This document shows, piece by piece, positions 13,286 through 20,465 of a stretch of DNA of 64,000 bases. Each line of letters opens with the position of its first letter. Position 1 is the stretch's first letter. A program made the translations under genes and the position numbers. The DNA comes from Candidatus Thorarchaeota archaeon (lineage in GTDB: Archaea; Asgardarchaeota; Thorarchaeia; Thorarchaeales; Thorarchaeaceae). The notes beneath the pieces were generated by a model. That model was given only the letters and a program-made list of their open reading frames with translations. It made no database searches and was not told where the DNA came from. The stretch covers positions 128,001 to 192,000 of the forward strand of contig DXJO01000006.1 in the NCBI GenBank assembly GCA_019057475.1, given 5' to 3'.

Positions 13286-15577
13286 ATGTGGTATGCGAGA
13301 ATGAAGAGGTTCATGCACGTGTCTGTAGGACTCGTGTTGTTCATTCTTGTTGCTGCTTGTTTGGCTCAGCCAATGAGCGCATGGTCAGGGCTCAAGGATT
13401 CTTCTATGTTCCCTACGCAAGACGCAGACGAACCGCTAGTAATTACCAGCAATGCCGATTTCGAATCACAAGGGTGGCAAGGAACTGGAACCAATGAAGA
13501 CCCCTATGTCATCGAAGGATTGCTTTACGACGGGGGTTTCGGACCGTACATTAACATTACAGGTGTAGATGCACGCTTCGTGATTAGAAATTGCGAAATG
13601 TTGTCACGTCCTGTTGTGCCACAGGAATATGGTTATACTTCTGCGACCTATGTGACCATAAGAAATACACAGAACTTCACTATTGAAGACTGCAGATTTA
13701 TCGGCGGAAGTACTCACATTGTTGTCCATGATTCGAAATGTGTCCGCATACATAGCAACACATTTGCCCAGGGCAATGGCATCGTGTGTATGGACGTTGA
13801 CATCTTGAACGTTTCTGAAAACTCTATAGAAGACTCACATTTCCTGCGTGTGTGGGAAAGCGGCAATGTCAATGTGAGGAATAACTCAATCTTGGGCTAT
13901 GTCTTTTTGTCGGAACCTGCCTATGTGGAAATGGGACCGTACATCATGATTCACACACGGCAGAGAGTCGAGTTCGTTTCAAACACAGTCGTGGGAGAAA
14001 TCGATTTGAGTATCTCTTCAAGGGAGGTTGTGATTCGCAACAACACATTCCTTAATATGACGGGTGGAATCTCAATGCCATACGAGTCATGGTATTCAGG
14101 CGTGAGAACAGTCCAAGTCGAAATCACAGATAACCACTTTGATGGTGGTGGACTATCATTTTGGCAGGACAGCAGCTACCCACTAGACATCGCAGTTATT
14201 GAGAACAACTACATAGCTGGCAAACCCATCCTGTTTCAGAGAGAAGAATCAGAAAAGGTGATCAACTGTCAGTATTATGGACAGGTAATCTCATACCTTT
14301 GTTCGGATACGATATACAGCGGGGGAACCTTCAGGAATGTGAGCATAGGACTTGTGATAATAGACTGCTTCAATTCGAGTATAAGCGACATCGATTTCAG
14401 CTCCTGCTATACTGGTATCATGCTAAGGCACAGCAATAAAATATCCATTGAACGAGTACAGGTGATTGACTGTGTTTTGGGACTGAACGCTCACTACTCA
14501 CACAATATGACAGTGTCCAACTGTCTGTTTGAACAATGCTCTGAGGGTGTGACTTGGTGGTGGTGCGAGGACGGGGAAATCGTATCGAATGTATTTCGCG
14601 AGAATTGGATGGGTCTCAATCTGGACTGGTGCTGTAGGGCTACTGTCACCAGCAACCTGTTCGACCGAAACTTTCGAAATGCGCAAGATTATGGTTATTT
14701 CCCGAACAACTGGGATAACAACACATGGAGTGACTATTCGGGGTTCGGTGTTCACATCTTGTTTATTCATGATGGCAGGATTATAGCAGACCACTACCCT
14801 AAATCCACATTACCTTGGTATCAGCTTCCTGTGGTTATTCAGCTCATATCCATTCTCACGGTGCTATTGCTTCTGTTCACTACCTACATGGTAAGCAAAT
14901 GGACGGGCGGAAGACTGGCGCGATTCCTTAGCAGCAAGAACAATATGCTCGCTCTCCTGTTGCAAATTGAGGTGCTCGCTTCTCCCGTTGTTTTTTCTGT
15001 AGGGGAATCGACGGTCCCCGCTAACATCGAACCTGAGAGCTATTTGATGCTAGGCTCAATCCTCTGGAGAGTGTGGGTACAAGGAATCTGGACATACTTC
15101 CAGGGACCACTCTCAACATACTCTCAGGAGTCATGGAGTCAGTTCTACATAACTAGTAGTCAAATACTGGCAATACTCCTCCTGATGGCGTTCACATTGA
15201 ATAGCTGGCGCCTTCAGCGAATGGGGGCAAGTCGTTTAGACAAGAGAGCTAATATCCTACTCCTGCTCTTGTCAGCTGTCTACCTCGCCTTGATTTACCC
15301 ACAGGCGGGATTGCCATTGCCAGTTGGACCAGTTCTTGTGTATTTCACGCTGAAACTTGTGAGCGAATCTCCTCAGGATACAAGTCCTTCCAAAGGCCTT
15401 CCCCCAGACTACTTGCGGCTTAAATGTCCTAATTGTGGAGCGGTTTATTCTTACAGTCCTTCTTCTCGAGTCAAGGAGGGCGTAGTCAGATGTCAGAACT
15501 GCAACAGGGAGTTTGATCCAAAGCTCATCTCAAAGGAAACGTTGGATGGCAATTACTCGGCCAAAGCCAATGCCTGA
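13286..15577 (+). CDS. NosD/CASH right-handed beta-helix surface protein with polytopic TM region and C-terminal Zn ribbon
   Basis: Signal peptide; GTGTNEDPYVI; parallel beta-helix repeats; NNWDNNTWSDY..DHYP; several TMs; CPNC..CQNC. Confidence 0.8.
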   Translation: MWYARMKRFMHVSVGLVLFILVAACLAQPMSAWSGLKDSSMFPTQDADEPLVITSNADFESQGWQGTGTNEDPYVIEGLLYDGGFGPYINITGVDARFVIRNCEMLSRPVVPQEYGYTSATYVTIRNTQNFTIEDCRFIGGSTHIVVHDSKCVRIHSNTFAQGNGIVCMDVDILNVSENSIEDSHFLRVWESGNVNVRNNSILGYVFLSEPAYVEMGPYIMIHTRQRVEFVSNTVVGEIDLSISSREVVIRNNTFLNMTGGISMPYESWYSGVRTVQVEITDNHFDGGGLSFWQDSSYPLDIAVIENNYIAGKPILFQREESEKVINCQYYGQVISYLCSDTIYSGGTFRNVSIGLVIIDCFNSSISDIDFSSCYTGIMLRHSNKISIERVQVIDCVLGLNAHYSHNMTVSNCLFEQCSEGVTWWWCEDGEIVSNVFRENWMGLNLDWCCRATVTSNLFDRNFRNAQDYGYFPNNWDNNTWSDYSGFGVHILFIHDGRIIADHYPKSTLPWYQLPVVIQLISILTVLLLLFTTYMVSKWTGGRLARFLSSKNNMLALLLQIEVLASPVVFSVGESTVPANIEPESYLMLGSILWRVWVQGIWTYFQGPLSTYSQESWSQFYITSSQILAILLLMAFTLNSWRLQRMGASRLDKRANILLLLLSAVYLALIYPQAGLPLPVGPVLVYFTLKLVSESPQDTSPSKGLPPDYLRLKCPNCGAVYSYSPSSRVKEGVVRCQNCNREFDPKLISKETLDGNYSAKANA

Positions 15578-15588
15578 CCTTGGTGTCT

Positions 15589-17073
15589 TTACATCTCCAT
15601 ATCCACATAGCTGACAGTTCCTTTCTTGGACCTGTATACAACTCCTTCACGCTCAAGCTTGGAGAGTGCTTTCTCGAATTGGGCTCCGGATAACCCTGAT
15701 GAGTCGCATCTTTCCTTTAATGCATCTAATGGGACATTCTTGTTACCTTCAGATGCTATCTGTTTCAAAACCTTTACGAACTTCTGCGTTGGCGGCAAGG
15801 ATTGGTCAATCACTGTGAGTTCTGGTGCGGGTTTGACGCCAATTGAAAAAGGAGGCGCCGAGTCAATGCTAGCAGCTTTCTTCGCACTGAGCAAAGCGGA
15901 TAAGAGATCTATCTTTCCAGGCGCAGCTGCCGGCTTAGTTTCAGAGGGTGCGATATCAGCCAGACTGACTCCTTCTGGTTCTCCCGACGTTTCTCCTATG
16001 AATGGAATTGACTGGGTCTCACCGTAATCAATACCTAACCATTGCGAATCAATATCCTGATTTACAGGGGCGGCTCGAAGAAGCTGGGTTCTATATCGCC
16101 TCATAATTTTCGTTCTCTGAGAGTCGAGATCTGAGCTGGAACATGTTTGCGCTCCCAGCATAAGCAATGAACGTTCGGCTAGGCCACGGACTCGCTTATG
16201 AGAGTCAGTCACGAGATAACCTAAGATTCGGAGAAGACTACTGAACTTGGATGATGAAATGTGCAGATTTTCTAGAAGGCTTTGCTTGACTTTCCAATCT
16301 GGGTCAGCAACCAAATCCATTACAATCCCCCTTGTTGACACGATTCCAAGCTTGCCAACAGCAGACGCTACTTGCACTCGGTCCTTCCAACTTGTTGTTC
16401 TTAGAAATGCAGTGAGATACTTGGATGTAGTGTGATCTACGATTCCACAGATATAGGACAGCAGCTCACGCTTGCTTTCTGCTGACATTTGACATAGGAG
16501 TTGAATCATTTTCCGGCGTGTGCGATTAGGAAAAGCTAAGACCTTCGGTACTGTTCCCAGCGAAATGACCTTAATGTTATCGCGAATCTTTTTCATAGCC
16601 CATCTTGCACCCGGAGGCCCAAGCGATGCCATCAAGCCGAAGACAGTTGGTTGATGCTCTACACCCAAACTCTCAAGAGCGGTAATCCATTGTCTTCGAG
16701 AGTTGTTGGAAATTGGGGCACCATCCTGAACAAATTCTTCCTCAATGCCCTGCAGCACTTGCTCTCTCTCAGCAGGGTTGAGGGTTGTCATGGATCTGAA
16801 GAGTTCTGGAAGATAGACACCGTATGCGTTTCGCACAGCCATCCTAAAGACAAGCTTGCGTAGTATCTGATTATCATCGTCAAGGAGAGTCATAACTTTT
16901 GGCAGTAATGATCGTGCGACAGGATGGGCAACCAGCTGCCCGGCAGATCCGTACAGGGCGCCCAAATCGAACGAGTCTAGGGAACCTGCAATCCGTTTCA
17001 ACTCCCTCAGCTTGGTCATCTCAAGTTTGGTGATATCCAACCGAGCCGTCTTTCTAGGGGTCAAGTCATCCAA
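15589..17073 (-). CDS. HEAT-repeat protein with Pro/Ala linker and C-terminal winged helix
   Basis: HEAT-like units (DDNQILRK, SWKDRVQVA, DPDWKVKQ, DSHKRVRGLA); C-terminus VPLDALKERC..QFEKALSKLEREGVVYRSKKGTV; TTG start with GAGGGG upstream. Confidence 0.7.
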   Translation of the reverse strand: MDDLTPRKTARLDITKLEMTKLRELKRIAGSLDSFDLGALYGSAGQLVAHPVARSLLPKVMTLLDDDNQILRKLVFRMAVRNAYGVYLPELFRSMTTLNPAEREQVLQGIEEEFVQDGAPISNNSRRQWITALESLGVEHQPTVFGLMASLGPPGARWAMKKIRDNIKVISLGTVPKVLAFPNRTRRKMIQLLCQMSAESKRELLSYICGIVDHTTSKYLTAFLRTTSWKDRVQVASAVGKLGIVSTRGIVMDLVADPDWKVKQSLLENLHISSSKFSSLLRILGYLVTDSHKRVRGLAERSLLMLGAQTCSSSDLDSQRTKIMRRYRTQLLRAAPVNQDIDSQWLGIDYGETQSIPFIGETSGEPEGVSLADIAPSETKPAAAPGKIDLLSALLSAKKAASIDSAPPFSIGVKPAPELTVIDQSLPPTQKFVKVLKQIASEGNKNVPLDALKERCDSSGLSGAQFEKALSKLEREGVVYRSKKGTVSYVDMEM

Positions 17074-17093
17074 CCCCCTCGAATATCAATCAC

Positions 17094-18035
17094 CTATTTG
17101 CGCCCTCCCTTTTTCTTAGCTAACGATTTCTTGCTGCGTTTTTTCTTGGATGTTTTGCGCTTTCGAGACTTTGGACGTGAACCTTTCGCGGTTACAAGCA
17201 AGTACTCTGTGAGTGGAGCTTGCACGCTAGGTGTTGGTTCCTTCGCCTTATGGATTTCCTCCTTATCCGCTGAATCTTCAATTAGCTTGCCATTGAGTGT
17301 GACTTGTTCCGTTGATTCTATAGGAATGATTCTGGAAGCATCCGTAATTTCTAGCTCAAGAATTAGATTGTCATATGTTTCCAAAATTTCTACAGCTGCT
17401 GGATCAGCTTCATCTATAGAGCTGGCAGCAATCGTTTTCTCACGGAGTAATCTGCGTCCATACACTGTTCTAGATAGCGCCTTGAGGTCCAGTTTCCCAT
17501 CCTTAGTCTTGGGTCTAGCCATCTTGAATTCCTTGAGATGTGCTTCATGCAAAGAGGCCAGGAGGAATCCCATGCCATCTCTCTCGAGCGCAGATGGTGT
17601 CAGGTTGCCGAGGTCACCCTTCTCTATTAGCTCCATTGCAAGAGTTGAGCACTCAGCTCGGGCCAATCTCCTTCCGTCTTTCCAGCTTTCTCCTTTGCAG
17701 ACCAGCACTAGAACTTCGCTTGCGGGAATGTTTAGCGCCAAACTTAATGAGAGCATTTCAAGGGATCCAAAAATAGCATCTCTAAGCAGAATTAGTGTTT
17801 CTTGAAGATCCTGATCCGGATTCTCTTTTTCCCACTGTGTTTCAATTATTGCGTAAAGCCTATGCCATGGATAAGCCCTCTTGTCCTTCCAGTAACCCTT
17901 GAGCAATTCAGAAATCGCTTCAATATCGCCACGGCTGCTCAAGTCAGCTATCTTGTGGACAAAGACGAGTTTGCTTGATTTGGGCGATCTGCCCTTCTTG
18001 CTCAGAGCATTCATCCTCCGTGGACAAGATGACAC
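17094..18035 (-). CDS. Hypothetical helical protein with PIP-box-like motif and very basic C-terminal tail
   Basis: 313-aa ORF in operon arrangement with the HEAT gene; QAPLTEYL followed by KGSRPKSRKRKTSKKKRSKKSLAKKKGGRK; true start may be the ATG near 18011. Confidence 0.65.
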   Translation of the reverse strand: MSSCPRRMNALSKKGRSPKSSKLVFVHKIADLSSRGDIEAISELLKGYWKDKRAYPWHRLYAIIETQWEKENPDQDLQETLILLRDAIFGSLEMLSLSLALNIPASEVLVLVCKGESWKDGRRLARAECSTLAMELIEKGDLGNLTPSALERDGMGFLLASLHEAHLKEFKMARPKTKDGKLDLKALSRTVYGRRLLREKTIAASSIDEADPAAVEILETYDNLILELEITDASRIIPIESTEQVTLNGKLIEDSADKEEIHKAKEPTPSVQAPLTEYLLVTAKGSRPKSRKRKTSKKKRSKKSLAKKKGGRK

Positions 18036-18122: not shown

Positions 18123-18875
18123 TTAAAAAAGGAGCGAAAGACACGTCAGTGCTCCTTCGCACTTCTCAAACTCGCTCATATCTAGGGTGATGACATCAAA
18201 ACCTGCCTCTCGAACCATAAGAGCAGATTTAGGATAGCCGTTCGTCATTAGAATAGCACCCCCAACTGCCAACGTGTTTGCGGCATAGGCTTCCTTTTCT
18301 GCCACTACTAGTTTCTCGAATTGCACCAGCACTGGATGGTCTACGTATCGTCCTGTACAAATGACAATGCCTTTGCCCAAGTATGTGACATGACTTTTGA
18401 GATGAACAATCTCGGTATCAATAATTGTCTTGACAGGAACTTGGAGCCACTCGCCGACCTGTTCAGCGCCTTCTGCAGTCGTCCTCTGTGTTACTCCAAT
18501 GAGCAACTTATCTGGCAGATGGATGACGTCGCCGCCTTCAATCGTTGCTGGGGGTTGACAGTTCCTCACGTTGAGATGTTTCTCAAACATTTTTCTGACG
18601 GGTGCTTCCTCTCCTCGGCGGGAGCTTGTTCCCATTCGTGCAATAAATGCCCGGTTCCGATGGATGATGGCTATGTCCTCAACGAAACATGAGTCGGGAA
18701 AAGTATCATCTGGAGCAAGTCGTATCAACTCCAGTCCGAGTTCCTTGAGTGTATCGCAGTAAACCTTGTGCTGATCCAGTACTCTGGCTAGGTCAATGGT
18801 GCTTTTCAGCGGATGTGACGAGATACATCTCTGATAGCTATGGCTTGGTGACCTTACAATAGCACGCTTTGCCAT
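18123..18875 (-). CDS. ddaH: Dimethylarginine dimethylaminohydrolase / amidinotransferase (pentein) family
   Basis: FPDSCFVED, RRGE, IEGGD, HLKS and GALTCLS catalytic motifs. Confidence 0.88.
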   Translation of the reverse strand: MAKRAIVRSPSHSYQRCISSHPLKSTIDLARVLDQHKVYCDTLKELGLELIRLAPDDTFPDSCFVEDIAIIHRNRAFIARMGTSSRRGEEAPVRKMFEKHLNVRNCQPPATIEGGDVIHLPDKLLIGVTQRTTAEGAEQVGEWLQVPVKTIIDTEIVHLKSHVTYLGKGIVICTGRYVDHPVLVQFEKLVVAEKEAYAANTLAVGGAILMTNGYPKSALMVREAGFDVITLDMSEFEKCEGALTCLSLLF

Positions 18876-19022
18876 GGCAGCCTTGTCATGACTGCGAACC
18901 CTTTTGATTCCATCGAACCGAGGACATTGCAGCTTGAAATAGTAGGCTAAGGCACCTACCTCAACCTTATTTTGCAGTCACACAAATGGAATACCCAAGC
19001 AAGAAGGAGCCCCGATTCCGAA

Positions 19023-19313
19023 ATGATGATACAAGTCAATTACTTCGGTTTTCTCAGGTCAAAGCTCTCCAAGAGCTCTGAGGCAATTTGTCTATCAGAC
19101 GGTGCGAAGCTTAGAGACTTATTGCTCTCTCTTGCAGACAGATACGGTGACAATGTTGAAACATACGTATTTGATCGCGTGTCATCAGACGTCAAGGGTG
19201 ACATTGTGGTCAACGTCAATGATATGCCCCACCGACGAATTCAGGGTCTCGAAACGCAGCTCAATGAGGGTGACCGAGTGGACTTGATGCCAATGTTTGC
19301 CGGTGGCGGATAG
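19023..19313 (+). CDS. MoaD/ThiS/SAMP ubiquitin-like sulfur carrier
   Basis: Beta-grasp pattern IQVNYFGFLR..VNVND..LNEGDRVDLMPMFAGGG ending in diglycine; ATG 19023 preferred. Confidence 0.85.
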   Translation: MMIQVNYFGFLRSKLSKSSEAICLSDGAKLRDLLLSLADRYGDNVETYVFDRVSSDVKGDIVVNVNDMPHRRIQGLETQLNEGDRVDLMPMFAGGG

Positions 19314-19354: not shown

Positions 19355-19972
19355 TCAAATGAAAAGCCGTGAGATTCTCTTCCAGATTGTTTCTCCCATC
19401 TGTCTGTATCCCCGAATGCTAAGATGCAGACCATCACCGCTGTCGAATGTTGGCCGAAGAAGGTTATCAGAATCCGCCAGCACTGAGAATAGGTCGACAA
19501 CGATAAGTCCCTCGATGTCCTTCGGAGCCCTCAGTATCAGACTATTCAATTCTTCCTGTTTCACTTGTATATCTGGGAAGGCTGAACCGATGGGTGGAAC
19601 CGTGCAGGCTACAACTCTAGCTCCGCTATCGCTCGCCAAGCTCCAGAGGTTTGTTAGTGTTTTGAAGATTGCATGAACCGGATAGCCCCAGCCAATATCG
19701 TTCGATCCCCCAAGGATGATTACTGCACCGTATCGCTTCTGTTGAAGCAAGCGTTCCAATCGACCATGCATAAGCTGAGCTAGCTCCCCAGGAACGCCCT
19801 GATTCACAAATGAAACGGAATAGTGTCCTTCGCTCTTGCTTGATTTCAATAGCCAGAACCCGTATTGAGAACTCTCATCTCCTCCGTAACTAGGGTCGTA
19901 ACCCGGAGTGCCTGCGGTCAGACTGTCGCCAAAGCCAAGCATCGTAATAGCTGTTTCTTCATCCGGATTCAA
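19355..19972 (-). CDS. SGNH/GDSL hydrolase
   Basis: GDSLTAG, NQGVPG, GGSND and DGLHL blocks. Confidence 0.9.
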   Translation of the reverse strand: MNPDEETAITMLGFGDSLTAGTPGYDPSYGGDESSQYGFWLLKSSKSEGHYSVSFVNQGVPGELAQLMHGRLERLLQQKRYGAVIILGGSNDIGWGYPVHAIFKTLTNLWSLASDSGARVVACTVPPIGSAFPDIQVKQEELNSLILRAPKDIEGLIVVDLFSVLADSDNLLRPTFDSGDGLHLSIRGYRQMGETIWKRISRLFI

Positions 19973-20465
19973 GAGCCTTGATCTCCTTGTCGATCTTCGT
20001 TTTCTTGCGAAGCAGCTCGTGTCCTTCCTTTACAAGACTGGTCAGTTGTTTCTTGTATTCCTTCTCGCCGACGAGTCCGCGCTCATGCTTCTTCTCAAGT
20101 CTATCACGTCTATTTCGGACACTGTTCCACATCAATTCGAAGGACTTGGCTCTGATCCGGAGTCTGACTAGCTTTTTTGGGCCTTTTGATTTGTCGCGTC
20201 GCCTTGGCAAGGGTCTCTTTGTCTTACCAATGATAGTTCTAGCTTCTCTGAGTTCTAGCTTGGAAGGGCTAATCAATTGTCGTGGCGGTCCTGGAGCAAC
20301 TATTGCCATTTTGGGCTTTGCGGATTTCGCCGGTACCGTTGTAGTTTTCTTCACCTTTTTCGTTTTCGCCCCCTCTGAAATGCTGCTCTTTTCTTCTTCT
20401 GCCAGCTTGGCCAGGTCCTTCTTGTACTTCTCAAGGCGCTTCTGGGGGGTTGATTCCTTACTCAA
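19959..20465 (-). CDS. Lys/Arg-rich hypothetical protein with coiled coil and SHOCT-like segment
   Basis: Very basic 168 aa; LEKKHERGLVGEKEYKKQL; overlaps next gene; TTG start with GGTG SD. Confidence 0.6.
   Translation of the reverse strand: MSKESTPQKRLEKYKKDLAKLAEEEKSSISEGAKTKKVKKTTTVPAKSAKPKMAIVAPGPPRQLISPSKLELREARTIIGKTKRPLPRRRDKSKGPKKLVRLRIRAKSFELMWNSVRNRRDRLEKKHERGLVGEKEYKKQLTSLVKEGHELLRKKTKIDKEIKALESG

Follow-up and report, generated by a model that had tools for sequence, protein, structure and literature searches.

A two-gene module of the Thorarchaeaceae: an orphan protein with a PIP-box-like motif and a HEAT/ARM-like protein ending in an MCM-type winged helix

Introduction

Two adjacent genes in the genome of a Candidatus Thorarchaeota archaeon raise the question of whether their products work together, and whether they would do so on DNA. 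The genes, here called A and B, lie at positions 15589 to 18035 of the window, a stretch of 64,000 nucleotides comprising positions 128,001 to 192,000 of contig DXJO01000006.1 (assembly GCA_019057475.1; GTDB family Thorarchaeaceae). No known organisms are closer relatives of eukaryotes than the Asgard archaea, and to our knowledge hardly any experiments have addressed the accessory factors of their replication and chromatin. A preliminary description of the window, made from the sequence alone, had interpreted the two genes as an undescribed Asgard two-subunit complex that docks on the sliding clamp PCNA and on DNA, or else as a HEAT-repeat scaffold binding a basic tail of its partner that resembles a nuclear localization signal (NLS).

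We found that A and B are a real, conserved and previously undescribed two-gene module that is restricted to one Thorarchaeal family. No description of the pair was found in the literature on Asgard PCNA and PCNA-interacting protein (PIP) motifs or on Thorarchaeota HEAT and winged-helix (WH) proteins. Taken as a single statement, the proposal that the pair forms a two-subunit Thorarchaeaceae complex serving as a DNA-tethered and perhaps PCNA-tethered scaffold seems to us about evenly balanced between right and wrong; its parts differ in weight and are graded separately below.

A conserved gene pair in a single family

Both genes are open reading frames (ORFs) on the minus strand. Gene A (P0001, 17094-18035) encodes an orphan-family protein of 313 aa if read from the GTG at 18035 and of 306 aa from an alternative ATG at 18014. 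The ATG is the likelier start, because a catalogued identical protein (P0123) starts at this position, as do distant orthologues, which open with M-x-x-LSKK. Gene B (P0002, 15589-17073) yields 494 aa from a TTG at 17073 and 491 aa from a second TTG at 17064, which is likely the start since orthologues begin with MTPRK. The spacer from the stop codon of A to the first TTG (17074..17093, minus strand), read directly, measures the 20 nt of the preliminary description and contains GAGGGGG at 17074-17080; up to the second TTG the distance is 29 nt.

The gene A family was present in 66 and the gene B family in 71 of 85 genomes of the Thorarchaeaceae, the window's own GTDB family, while 315 other Asgard genomes contained neither gene A nor a full-length gene B. 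Nearly all named database relatives of both proteins carried the label Candidatus Thorarchaeota. When 1.84 billion representative proteins were searched by profile, 41 relatives of A were recovered, each a strong match to the family profile (40 at E<=1e-10), with no weaker remote tail. None of these 41 matches was a fused A-B protein, the longest member having 342 aa; in one genome (G386) A and B share the same frame with a TAG between them. No genome encoded A without B. Five genomes encoded B only, and in at least four of these (those other than G379) B stood at a contig end.

In all 28 loci inspected, which represent 16 genera, A lay directly upstream of B on the same strand, and the spacers in the other loci were short (0-150 nt). 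The flanking order DUF362, A, B, amidohydrolase is kept across genera, which identifies the pair as vertically inherited chromosomal DNA and rules out a mobile element or defence island. The strict adjacency and co-occurrence, together with the predicted complex described below, bear out the idea of a two-subunit unit; its supposed occurrence across Asgard archaea had to be narrowed to one family of Thorarchaeota.

In the single-contig genome G369 gene A is split, its halves (L028 and L029; G369:C1:637977-638483 and 738285-738665) lying on opposite strands at a distance of about 100 kb. Of the two, the C-terminal half alone, carrying the PIP-like motif and the tail, still adjoins gene B. The split is probably a rearrangement or an assembly artefact.

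Gene B: a basic solenoid and an acidic linker before a duplicated MCM winged helix

The AlphaFold2 (AF2) model of B consists of a helical solenoid of 19 helices (aa 14-334), a linker (about aa 341-425) and a winged helix (aa 428-489), in agreement with the HEAT-like repeats, Pro/Ala linker and terminal winged helix proposed for the second gene. Pfam HEAT_2 matched at aa 219-303 (E 2e-4; 21.9 bits, under the cut-off of 27.7) and was recorded for many orthologues. By structural alignment with VIA the solenoid reached Z 10-15 (top 15.3; root-mean-square deviation (rmsd) 5-12 A) to PP2A-A-like proteins, IntS4, importins and HAWKs, and the best Foldseek matches were importin-alpha and designed armadillo proteins in complex with (KR)n peptides (E ~1e-4, TM score 0.2-0.3). 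The modelled solenoid is thus HEAT/ARM-like, and the likeness is generic, with no specific family relationship. With the PP2A A subunit, IntS4, importin-alpha and the condensin/cohesin HAWKs it shares about 320 aa of paired-helix repeats; unlike these scaffolds it is strongly basic. The charge lies in the C-terminal part (aa 135-340; 16054..16671, minus strand), which has a net charge of +17 in this protein, a median of +14 in 38 orthologues and an isoelectric point of about 10.

The linker (aa 341-425; 15799..16053, minus strand) is rich in Pro, Ala and acidic residues and is predicted to be disordered, with a predicted local distance difference test score (pLDDT) below 50 except for a helix at 391-403. 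Its conserved islands are W345-L-G, G368-V-S-L and this helix, in which L390, A393 and L394 are invariant. The median net charge of the linker is -15 in the family and -7 in the protein of the window.

The C-terminal winged helix (aa 426-489; 15607..15798, minus strand) is a paralogue of the C-terminal WH of the replicative helicase MCM. It matched positions 622-681 of the NCBIfam MCM model (E 0.0018) and the WH of Sso MCM in the PDB (2m45; E 8.5e-4), and it superposed on the WH of Mth MCM (2ma3) with VIA Z 9.0 and an rmsd of 1.8 A over 66 aligned residues. Within the genome its best match after B itself was the extreme C-terminus of MCM (34% identity, E 3.9e-6); the real MCM is encoded elsewhere, on contig C54, in a frame of 711 aa. 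Matches of the B profile outside the family mostly covered the WH region only, and four of them lay in ORFs of 687-695 aa, the size of the genome's own 711-aa MCM. The winged helix of B is therefore of MCM type by sequence and by fold, as had been suspected, and represents a duplicated MCM WH.

The match takes in the last ~65 residues of B, and in both proteins the WH stands at the extreme C-terminus after a flexible linker with a short helix. Unlike MCM, B has no N-terminal and AAA+ domains, and a Pfam search gave no MCM (PF00493) or AAA+ match; B is for this reason not a helicase. As to a possible homology between the linker helices of B and MCM, matches reaching profile position 381-383 came from two Asgard genomes only, and the alignment of B with the MCM of its own genome covers the WH only and leaves the linker helix outside. 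In Sso MCM, the C-terminal WH and the linker helix act in cis as modulators of the ATPase and the helicase (PMC4357721). The combination of a HEAT solenoid with an MCM-type WH was found nowhere else in the searches run here.

Gene A: an orphan domain that accompanies solenoid scaffolds

The globular part of A, which we call domain X (aa 20-238; 17322..17978, minus strand), is mostly helical with a small beta element and forms the predicted docking surface for B. Its model is confident, with AF2 block-mean pLDDT values of 87-96 across aa 21-230. We found no Pfam or NCBIfam match for gene A. Foldseek against the PDB gave a best E of 0.48 and no known fold, and a PDB profile search gave nothing under E 2.9. 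VIA-align against 48,161 chains reached at best Z 6.2, confined to a helical hairpin at 157-238. Against the ESM Atlas, comparison by shape stayed below TM 0.3 and comparison by features gave no usable match. The modelled domain X thus has no recognisable fold in structure and profile searches, blanks that do not prove a new fold. Structure searches of both proteins, as the preliminary description had proposed, therefore assigned A to no known family, gave B generic solenoid matches only and identified its WH as MCM-type. Flags of an internal TGA in relatives of gene A raised the possibility of selenocysteine, which was rejected as translation showed that these TGA codons were terminal stop codons.

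The core of domain X (aa 86-233) shares homology with the N-domain of Thorarchaeal HEAT_2 proteins of ~690 aa (hhalign 95%, E 2.6e-8) and also matches the N-terminal domain of 429-aa Thorarchaeal proteins with HEAT_2 repeats (hhalign 93%). A domain X profile built from the HEAT-fused N-domain found several paralogues per genome in 52 of the 85 family genomes and was positive in 1 of the 315 genomes elsewhere. Sampled paralogues bear HEAT, LRR or WD40 plus LRR repeats, or nothing recognisable. As far as sequence comparison goes, domain X is an expanded module specific to the Thorarchaeaceae and a habitual companion of solenoid scaffolds. The fusion of its paralogues to HEAT repeats lends fusion-type support to the binding of A to a HEAT protein. 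Simple fission of A and B from a 690-aa domain X-HEAT paralogue was considered and rejected, since the repeats of B and those of the paralogue are not specifically related (hhalign probability 1.9%).

Among the individual paralogues, the one in this genome combines LRR with domain X (L055; G000:C8:89625-91388, minus strand). The others (L044, L046, L047 and L048-L054) comprise HEAT_2 fusions of ~430, 540 and 690-710 aa and a WD40 plus LRR fusion of 1483 aa. The 690-aa domain X-HEAT family has a conserved acidic-aromatic C-terminal end, D-[DE]-F-W-A.

A predicted complex of A and B

Structure prediction of the pair gave an ipSAE of 0.79 (runs 0.81, 0.79 and 0.79) and 0.00 for the best of three controls, a score that is the model's own confidence and was built on our own alignments. 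Of 80 solved complexes 58 attained that mark, as did 2 of 110 mismatched pairs. Partner pLDDT was 70, and the runs shared at least 62% of their contacts. Searches with Foldseek, VIA and PDB profiles found no similar solved complex, so it seems unlikely that the model simply reproduced a complex already known to it.

The predicted interface joins A 32-203, within the globular domain, to B 12-128, the first repeats of the solenoid (16690..17040, minus strand). Family-invariant residues in it are L81, R85, F89 and S96 of A, and E18, L56, L57, K59, Y87, G118 and P120 of B are invariant or nearly so. Neither the tail of A nor the WH of B is part of the confident interface, and both would therefore be left free. 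That A binds B is strongly suggested by this prediction, and we consider it the most secure of the functional claims made here.

A PIP-box-like motif and an exchangeable basic tail

The C-terminal arm of A contains the sequence QAPLTEYL (aa 272-279), exactly at 17199..17222 of the minus strand, where the preliminary description had placed it. It conforms to the PIP-box pattern applied here, Q-x-x-[LIM]-x-x-[FY]-[FY or hydrophobic], and the family consensus is Q-x-[P/x]-L-[TS]-[ED]-[FY]-[LIMFV]. The region is disordered in the AF2 model (pLDDT below 50), with a short helix at 275-278. In an alignment of 26 A sequences Q272 and L275 were invariant, and the flanking residues were variable and predicted to be disordered. 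Conservation in orthologues, on which the earlier idea hinged, was high: the strict motif was kept in 70 of 74 A family proteins, compared with 0.3% of shuffled family tails and a background rate of 8.7e-5 per residue in the ORFs of this genome.

In archaea, FEN1, NreA and the Y-family polymerases are well-established clients of PCNA. In a census of this genome, which has one PCNA gene (L001, a stop-to-stop frame of 260 aa), six proteins ended exactly in a motif of this kind; three of them, FEN1 (QSTLSDFF), the Y-family polymerase PolY (QMCLTNFL) and NreA (QRTLEEFY), share the pattern Q-x-x-L-x-[DEN]-[FY]-[FLY]. Because these C-termini share its pattern, the motif of gene A fits the organism's own PIP consensus. 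Like the archaeal PIP clients FEN1, PolY/Dpo4, NreA and short XPF, A has a disordered C-terminal arm with Q-x-x-L-x-[DE]-[FY]-[hydrophobic]. Unlike them, it carries the motif inside the arm, followed by a polybasic tail of 23-58 aa, and not at the extreme C-terminus; its body is an orphan, non-enzymatic domain, and its binding of PCNA is putative.

The same census yielded three further proteins (L034-L036), namely a DUF2797 protein ending in QSGLLDYI (G000:C12:12426-13349, minus strand), a 226-aa frame ending in QEVIQNFL (G000:C42:61015-61692, plus strand) and a 168-aa frame ending in QSELVEFI (G000:C19:89700-90203, plus strand), the last two without a Pfam match. By their C-termini these are candidates for unrecognised PCNA clients.

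The motif of A is followed by a polybasic tail (aa 280-313; 17097..17198, minus strand), a putative non-specific DNA-binding appendage. The Lys/Arg tail of the preliminary description is present, with 18 K/R, and is 34 rather than 30 aa long. Its median net charge across the family is +12, and in most genera the residues after the motif number 23-58 with 11-27 K/R. In genera g14 and g15 the motif is retained and the tail is short and non-basic. Genus g16 (L026, G390:C9) retains the motif as QEELTEYV and has exchanged the tail for Pfam HHH_5 (E 3e-11). In genus g11 (L021, G337:C96) the arm of A is wholly lost, while HHH_5 (E 2.6e-13) and a basic stretch have been added at the N-terminus of B. 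Helix-hairpin-helix (HhH) domains are non-specific duplex-DNA-binding modules, and the exchange of the tail for such a domain is the best evidence that the tail is most likely a DNA-binding module or tether. Since g16 keeps the motif and swaps the tail, the two have separate roles. Crenarchaeal XPF carries both PIP and HhH modules, and the g16 variant of A resembles it in having a PIP motif beside an HhH domain.

Proposed architecture and its alternatives

We propose that domain X of A caps the N-terminal repeats of the HEAT/ARM solenoid of B and that two flexible arms stay free, one with the PIP-like motif and polybasic tail of A, the other being the acidic linker of B that ends in the MCM-type WH. 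The polybasic tail, or HhH in some genera, would hold the complex on duplex DNA, and the PIP-like motif would dock it on PCNA. Nucleic acid may find a further surface on the basic half of the solenoid, perhaps one that the acidic linker masks, and the WH of B might engage whichever partner the C-terminal WH of MCM engages. The net role would be that of a scaffold tethered to the clamp and to DNA where replication or repair takes place. Within this proposal an association of the complex with DNA, judged from the tail and the domains that replace it, appears likely. Docking on PCNA, judged from the motif, we favour by a modest degree.

Several observations weigh against this proposal. The sampled paralogues of domain X, with their HEAT, LRR and WD40 scaffolds, lack any DNA-related domain, which leaves the core of gene A without a tie to DNA. 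Around the pair lie metabolic genes and not replication genes. The motif is missing in three genera (g5, g8 and g11), where PCNA docking, if real, would therefore be dispensable, and PIP-like motifs can serve partners other than PCNA. Both genes are absent from several family genomes of high quality (e.g. G336 at 97% completeness), and the complex is therefore accessory.

Part of this evidence also fits a scaffold bound to DNA or chromatin that makes no use of PCNA, its Q-x-x-L-T-E-[FY]-L motif serving the WH or the solenoid of B or an unrelated protein, and the tail or HhH alone tethering it to DNA. The swap between tail and HhH points to DNA and not to PCNA, and the basic solenoid, the loss of the motif in the three genera and the lack of replication genes nearby are all in keeping with it. 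However, the motif matches the pattern at the C-termini of FEN1, PolY and NreA, the genome's own PCNA clients, the retention of the motif in g16 after replacement of the tail speaks for separate functions, and the confident A-B interface excludes the motif. Of the alternatives, this one retains the largest share of our belief, and we still regard it as improbable beside the clamp- and DNA-tethered scaffold.

An RNA- or ribosome-associated complex, or another complex unconnected with DNA, is a further alternative, as basic tails and HEAT solenoids also occur in ribonucleoproteins and translation factors. RNA, too, would be a ligand for the polybasic tail and the basic solenoid, and the absence of a DNA link among domain X paralogues agrees with such a function. 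It is set back by the nature of the replacement for the tail, since HHH_5 is a duplex-DNA-binding module, by the MCM type of the WH and by a PIP pattern common to DNA enzymes of the same genome, and we hold it to be quite unlikely.

We also compared the pair with CAF-1, the modules of which are a KER DNA binder, a PIP motif, an acidic ED domain, which is disordered and folds upon histones, and a WHD (PMC10942606). With its large subunit (Cac1/Pcf1/p150) A and B share the module list across flexible regions, namely a PIP motif, a basic part that binds or would bind DNA, a disordered acidic stretch and a WH at the C-terminus. A replication-coupled histone chaperone might thus have been built from unrelated parts, the PIP motif binding PCNA, the tail DNA and the acidic linker histones, with the WH at the C-terminus. 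The parallel with the CAF-1 modules (PMC10942606), the median linker charge of -15 with its conserved islands and the archaeal histone encoded in this genome all favour such a reading. Unlike in CAF-1, the modules are divided between two proteins and there are no WD40 partners, nor a gene for a WD40 subunit in the locus. Searches with Pfam, NCBIfam, Foldseek, VIA and the PDB revealed no homology and no relation in sequence or fold to Cac1/p150, the linker of the window's own protein reaches only -7, and the resemblance is confined to the module list. We give a CAF-1-like chaperone somewhat less credence still than an RNA-associated complex.

An importin-like arrangement, in which the HEAT/ARM groove of B would bind the NLS-like tail of A, as the preliminary description had offered as its second option, could appeal to the top Foldseek matches of B (importin-alpha and armadillo proteins bound to (KR)n peptides), but these are generic solenoid matches, the predicted interface (A 32-203 with B 12-128) leaves the tail outside, the solenoid beyond it has a median net charge of +14 and would therefore repel a polybasic tail, and A and B are still paired in several genera that have lost the tail or swapped it for HhH, so that we consider it very improbable indeed.

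Genomic neighbourhood

Compared with other genera, the locus in the window contains insertions on both sides of the pair. Between B and the amidohydrolase stands the gene for a membrane protein, a NosD-like beta-helix that ends in a zinc ribbon (13286-15577, plus strand), and a DDAH/arginine-deiminase-like gene and a ThiS-like gene (18123-19313) are inserted upstream of A. Further upstream lies a gene for a 168-aa Lys-rich, coiled-coil-like protein without a Pfam match (19959-20465, minus strand), a relative of which stands directly upstream of gene A in other genera (loci L006, L007 and L030). Here, GDSL, ThiS and DDAH-like genes stand between the gene for the Lys-rich protein and gene A. The Lys-rich protein gene may once have been part of the A-B unit.

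Implications for the Thorarchaeaceae

A bolder reading is that the pair acts as a clamp-tethered regulator that presents, on DNA loaded with PCNA, a mimic of the MCM C-terminal domain together with an acidic linker that may bind histones. We consider this doubtful, with little more in its favour than the RNA-associated alternative. If true, it would be a Thorarchaeal invention linking the sliding clamp to the replicative helicase or to chromatin re-assembly, and it would be analogous to eukaryotic fork-coupling and CAF-1-type factors while made from unrelated parts, including a new protein fold. As the pair is restricted to one lineage, it is not the ancestor of any eukaryotic factor.

The pair would vary the theme of clamp- or DNA-tethered adaptors by joining an orphan domain to a HEAT solenoid that bears a duplicated MCM winged helix. 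It offers a clean and testable candidate, an orphan-fold protein with a conserved motif of the clamp-binding type whose strongly predicted partner is a HEAT scaffold with a copy of the regulatory WH of the helicase. In it, a modular logic of eukaryotic style, built on a solenoid scaffold, on short linear motifs placed in disordered arms and on DNA tethers that can be swapped, would have arisen within a single archaeal family.

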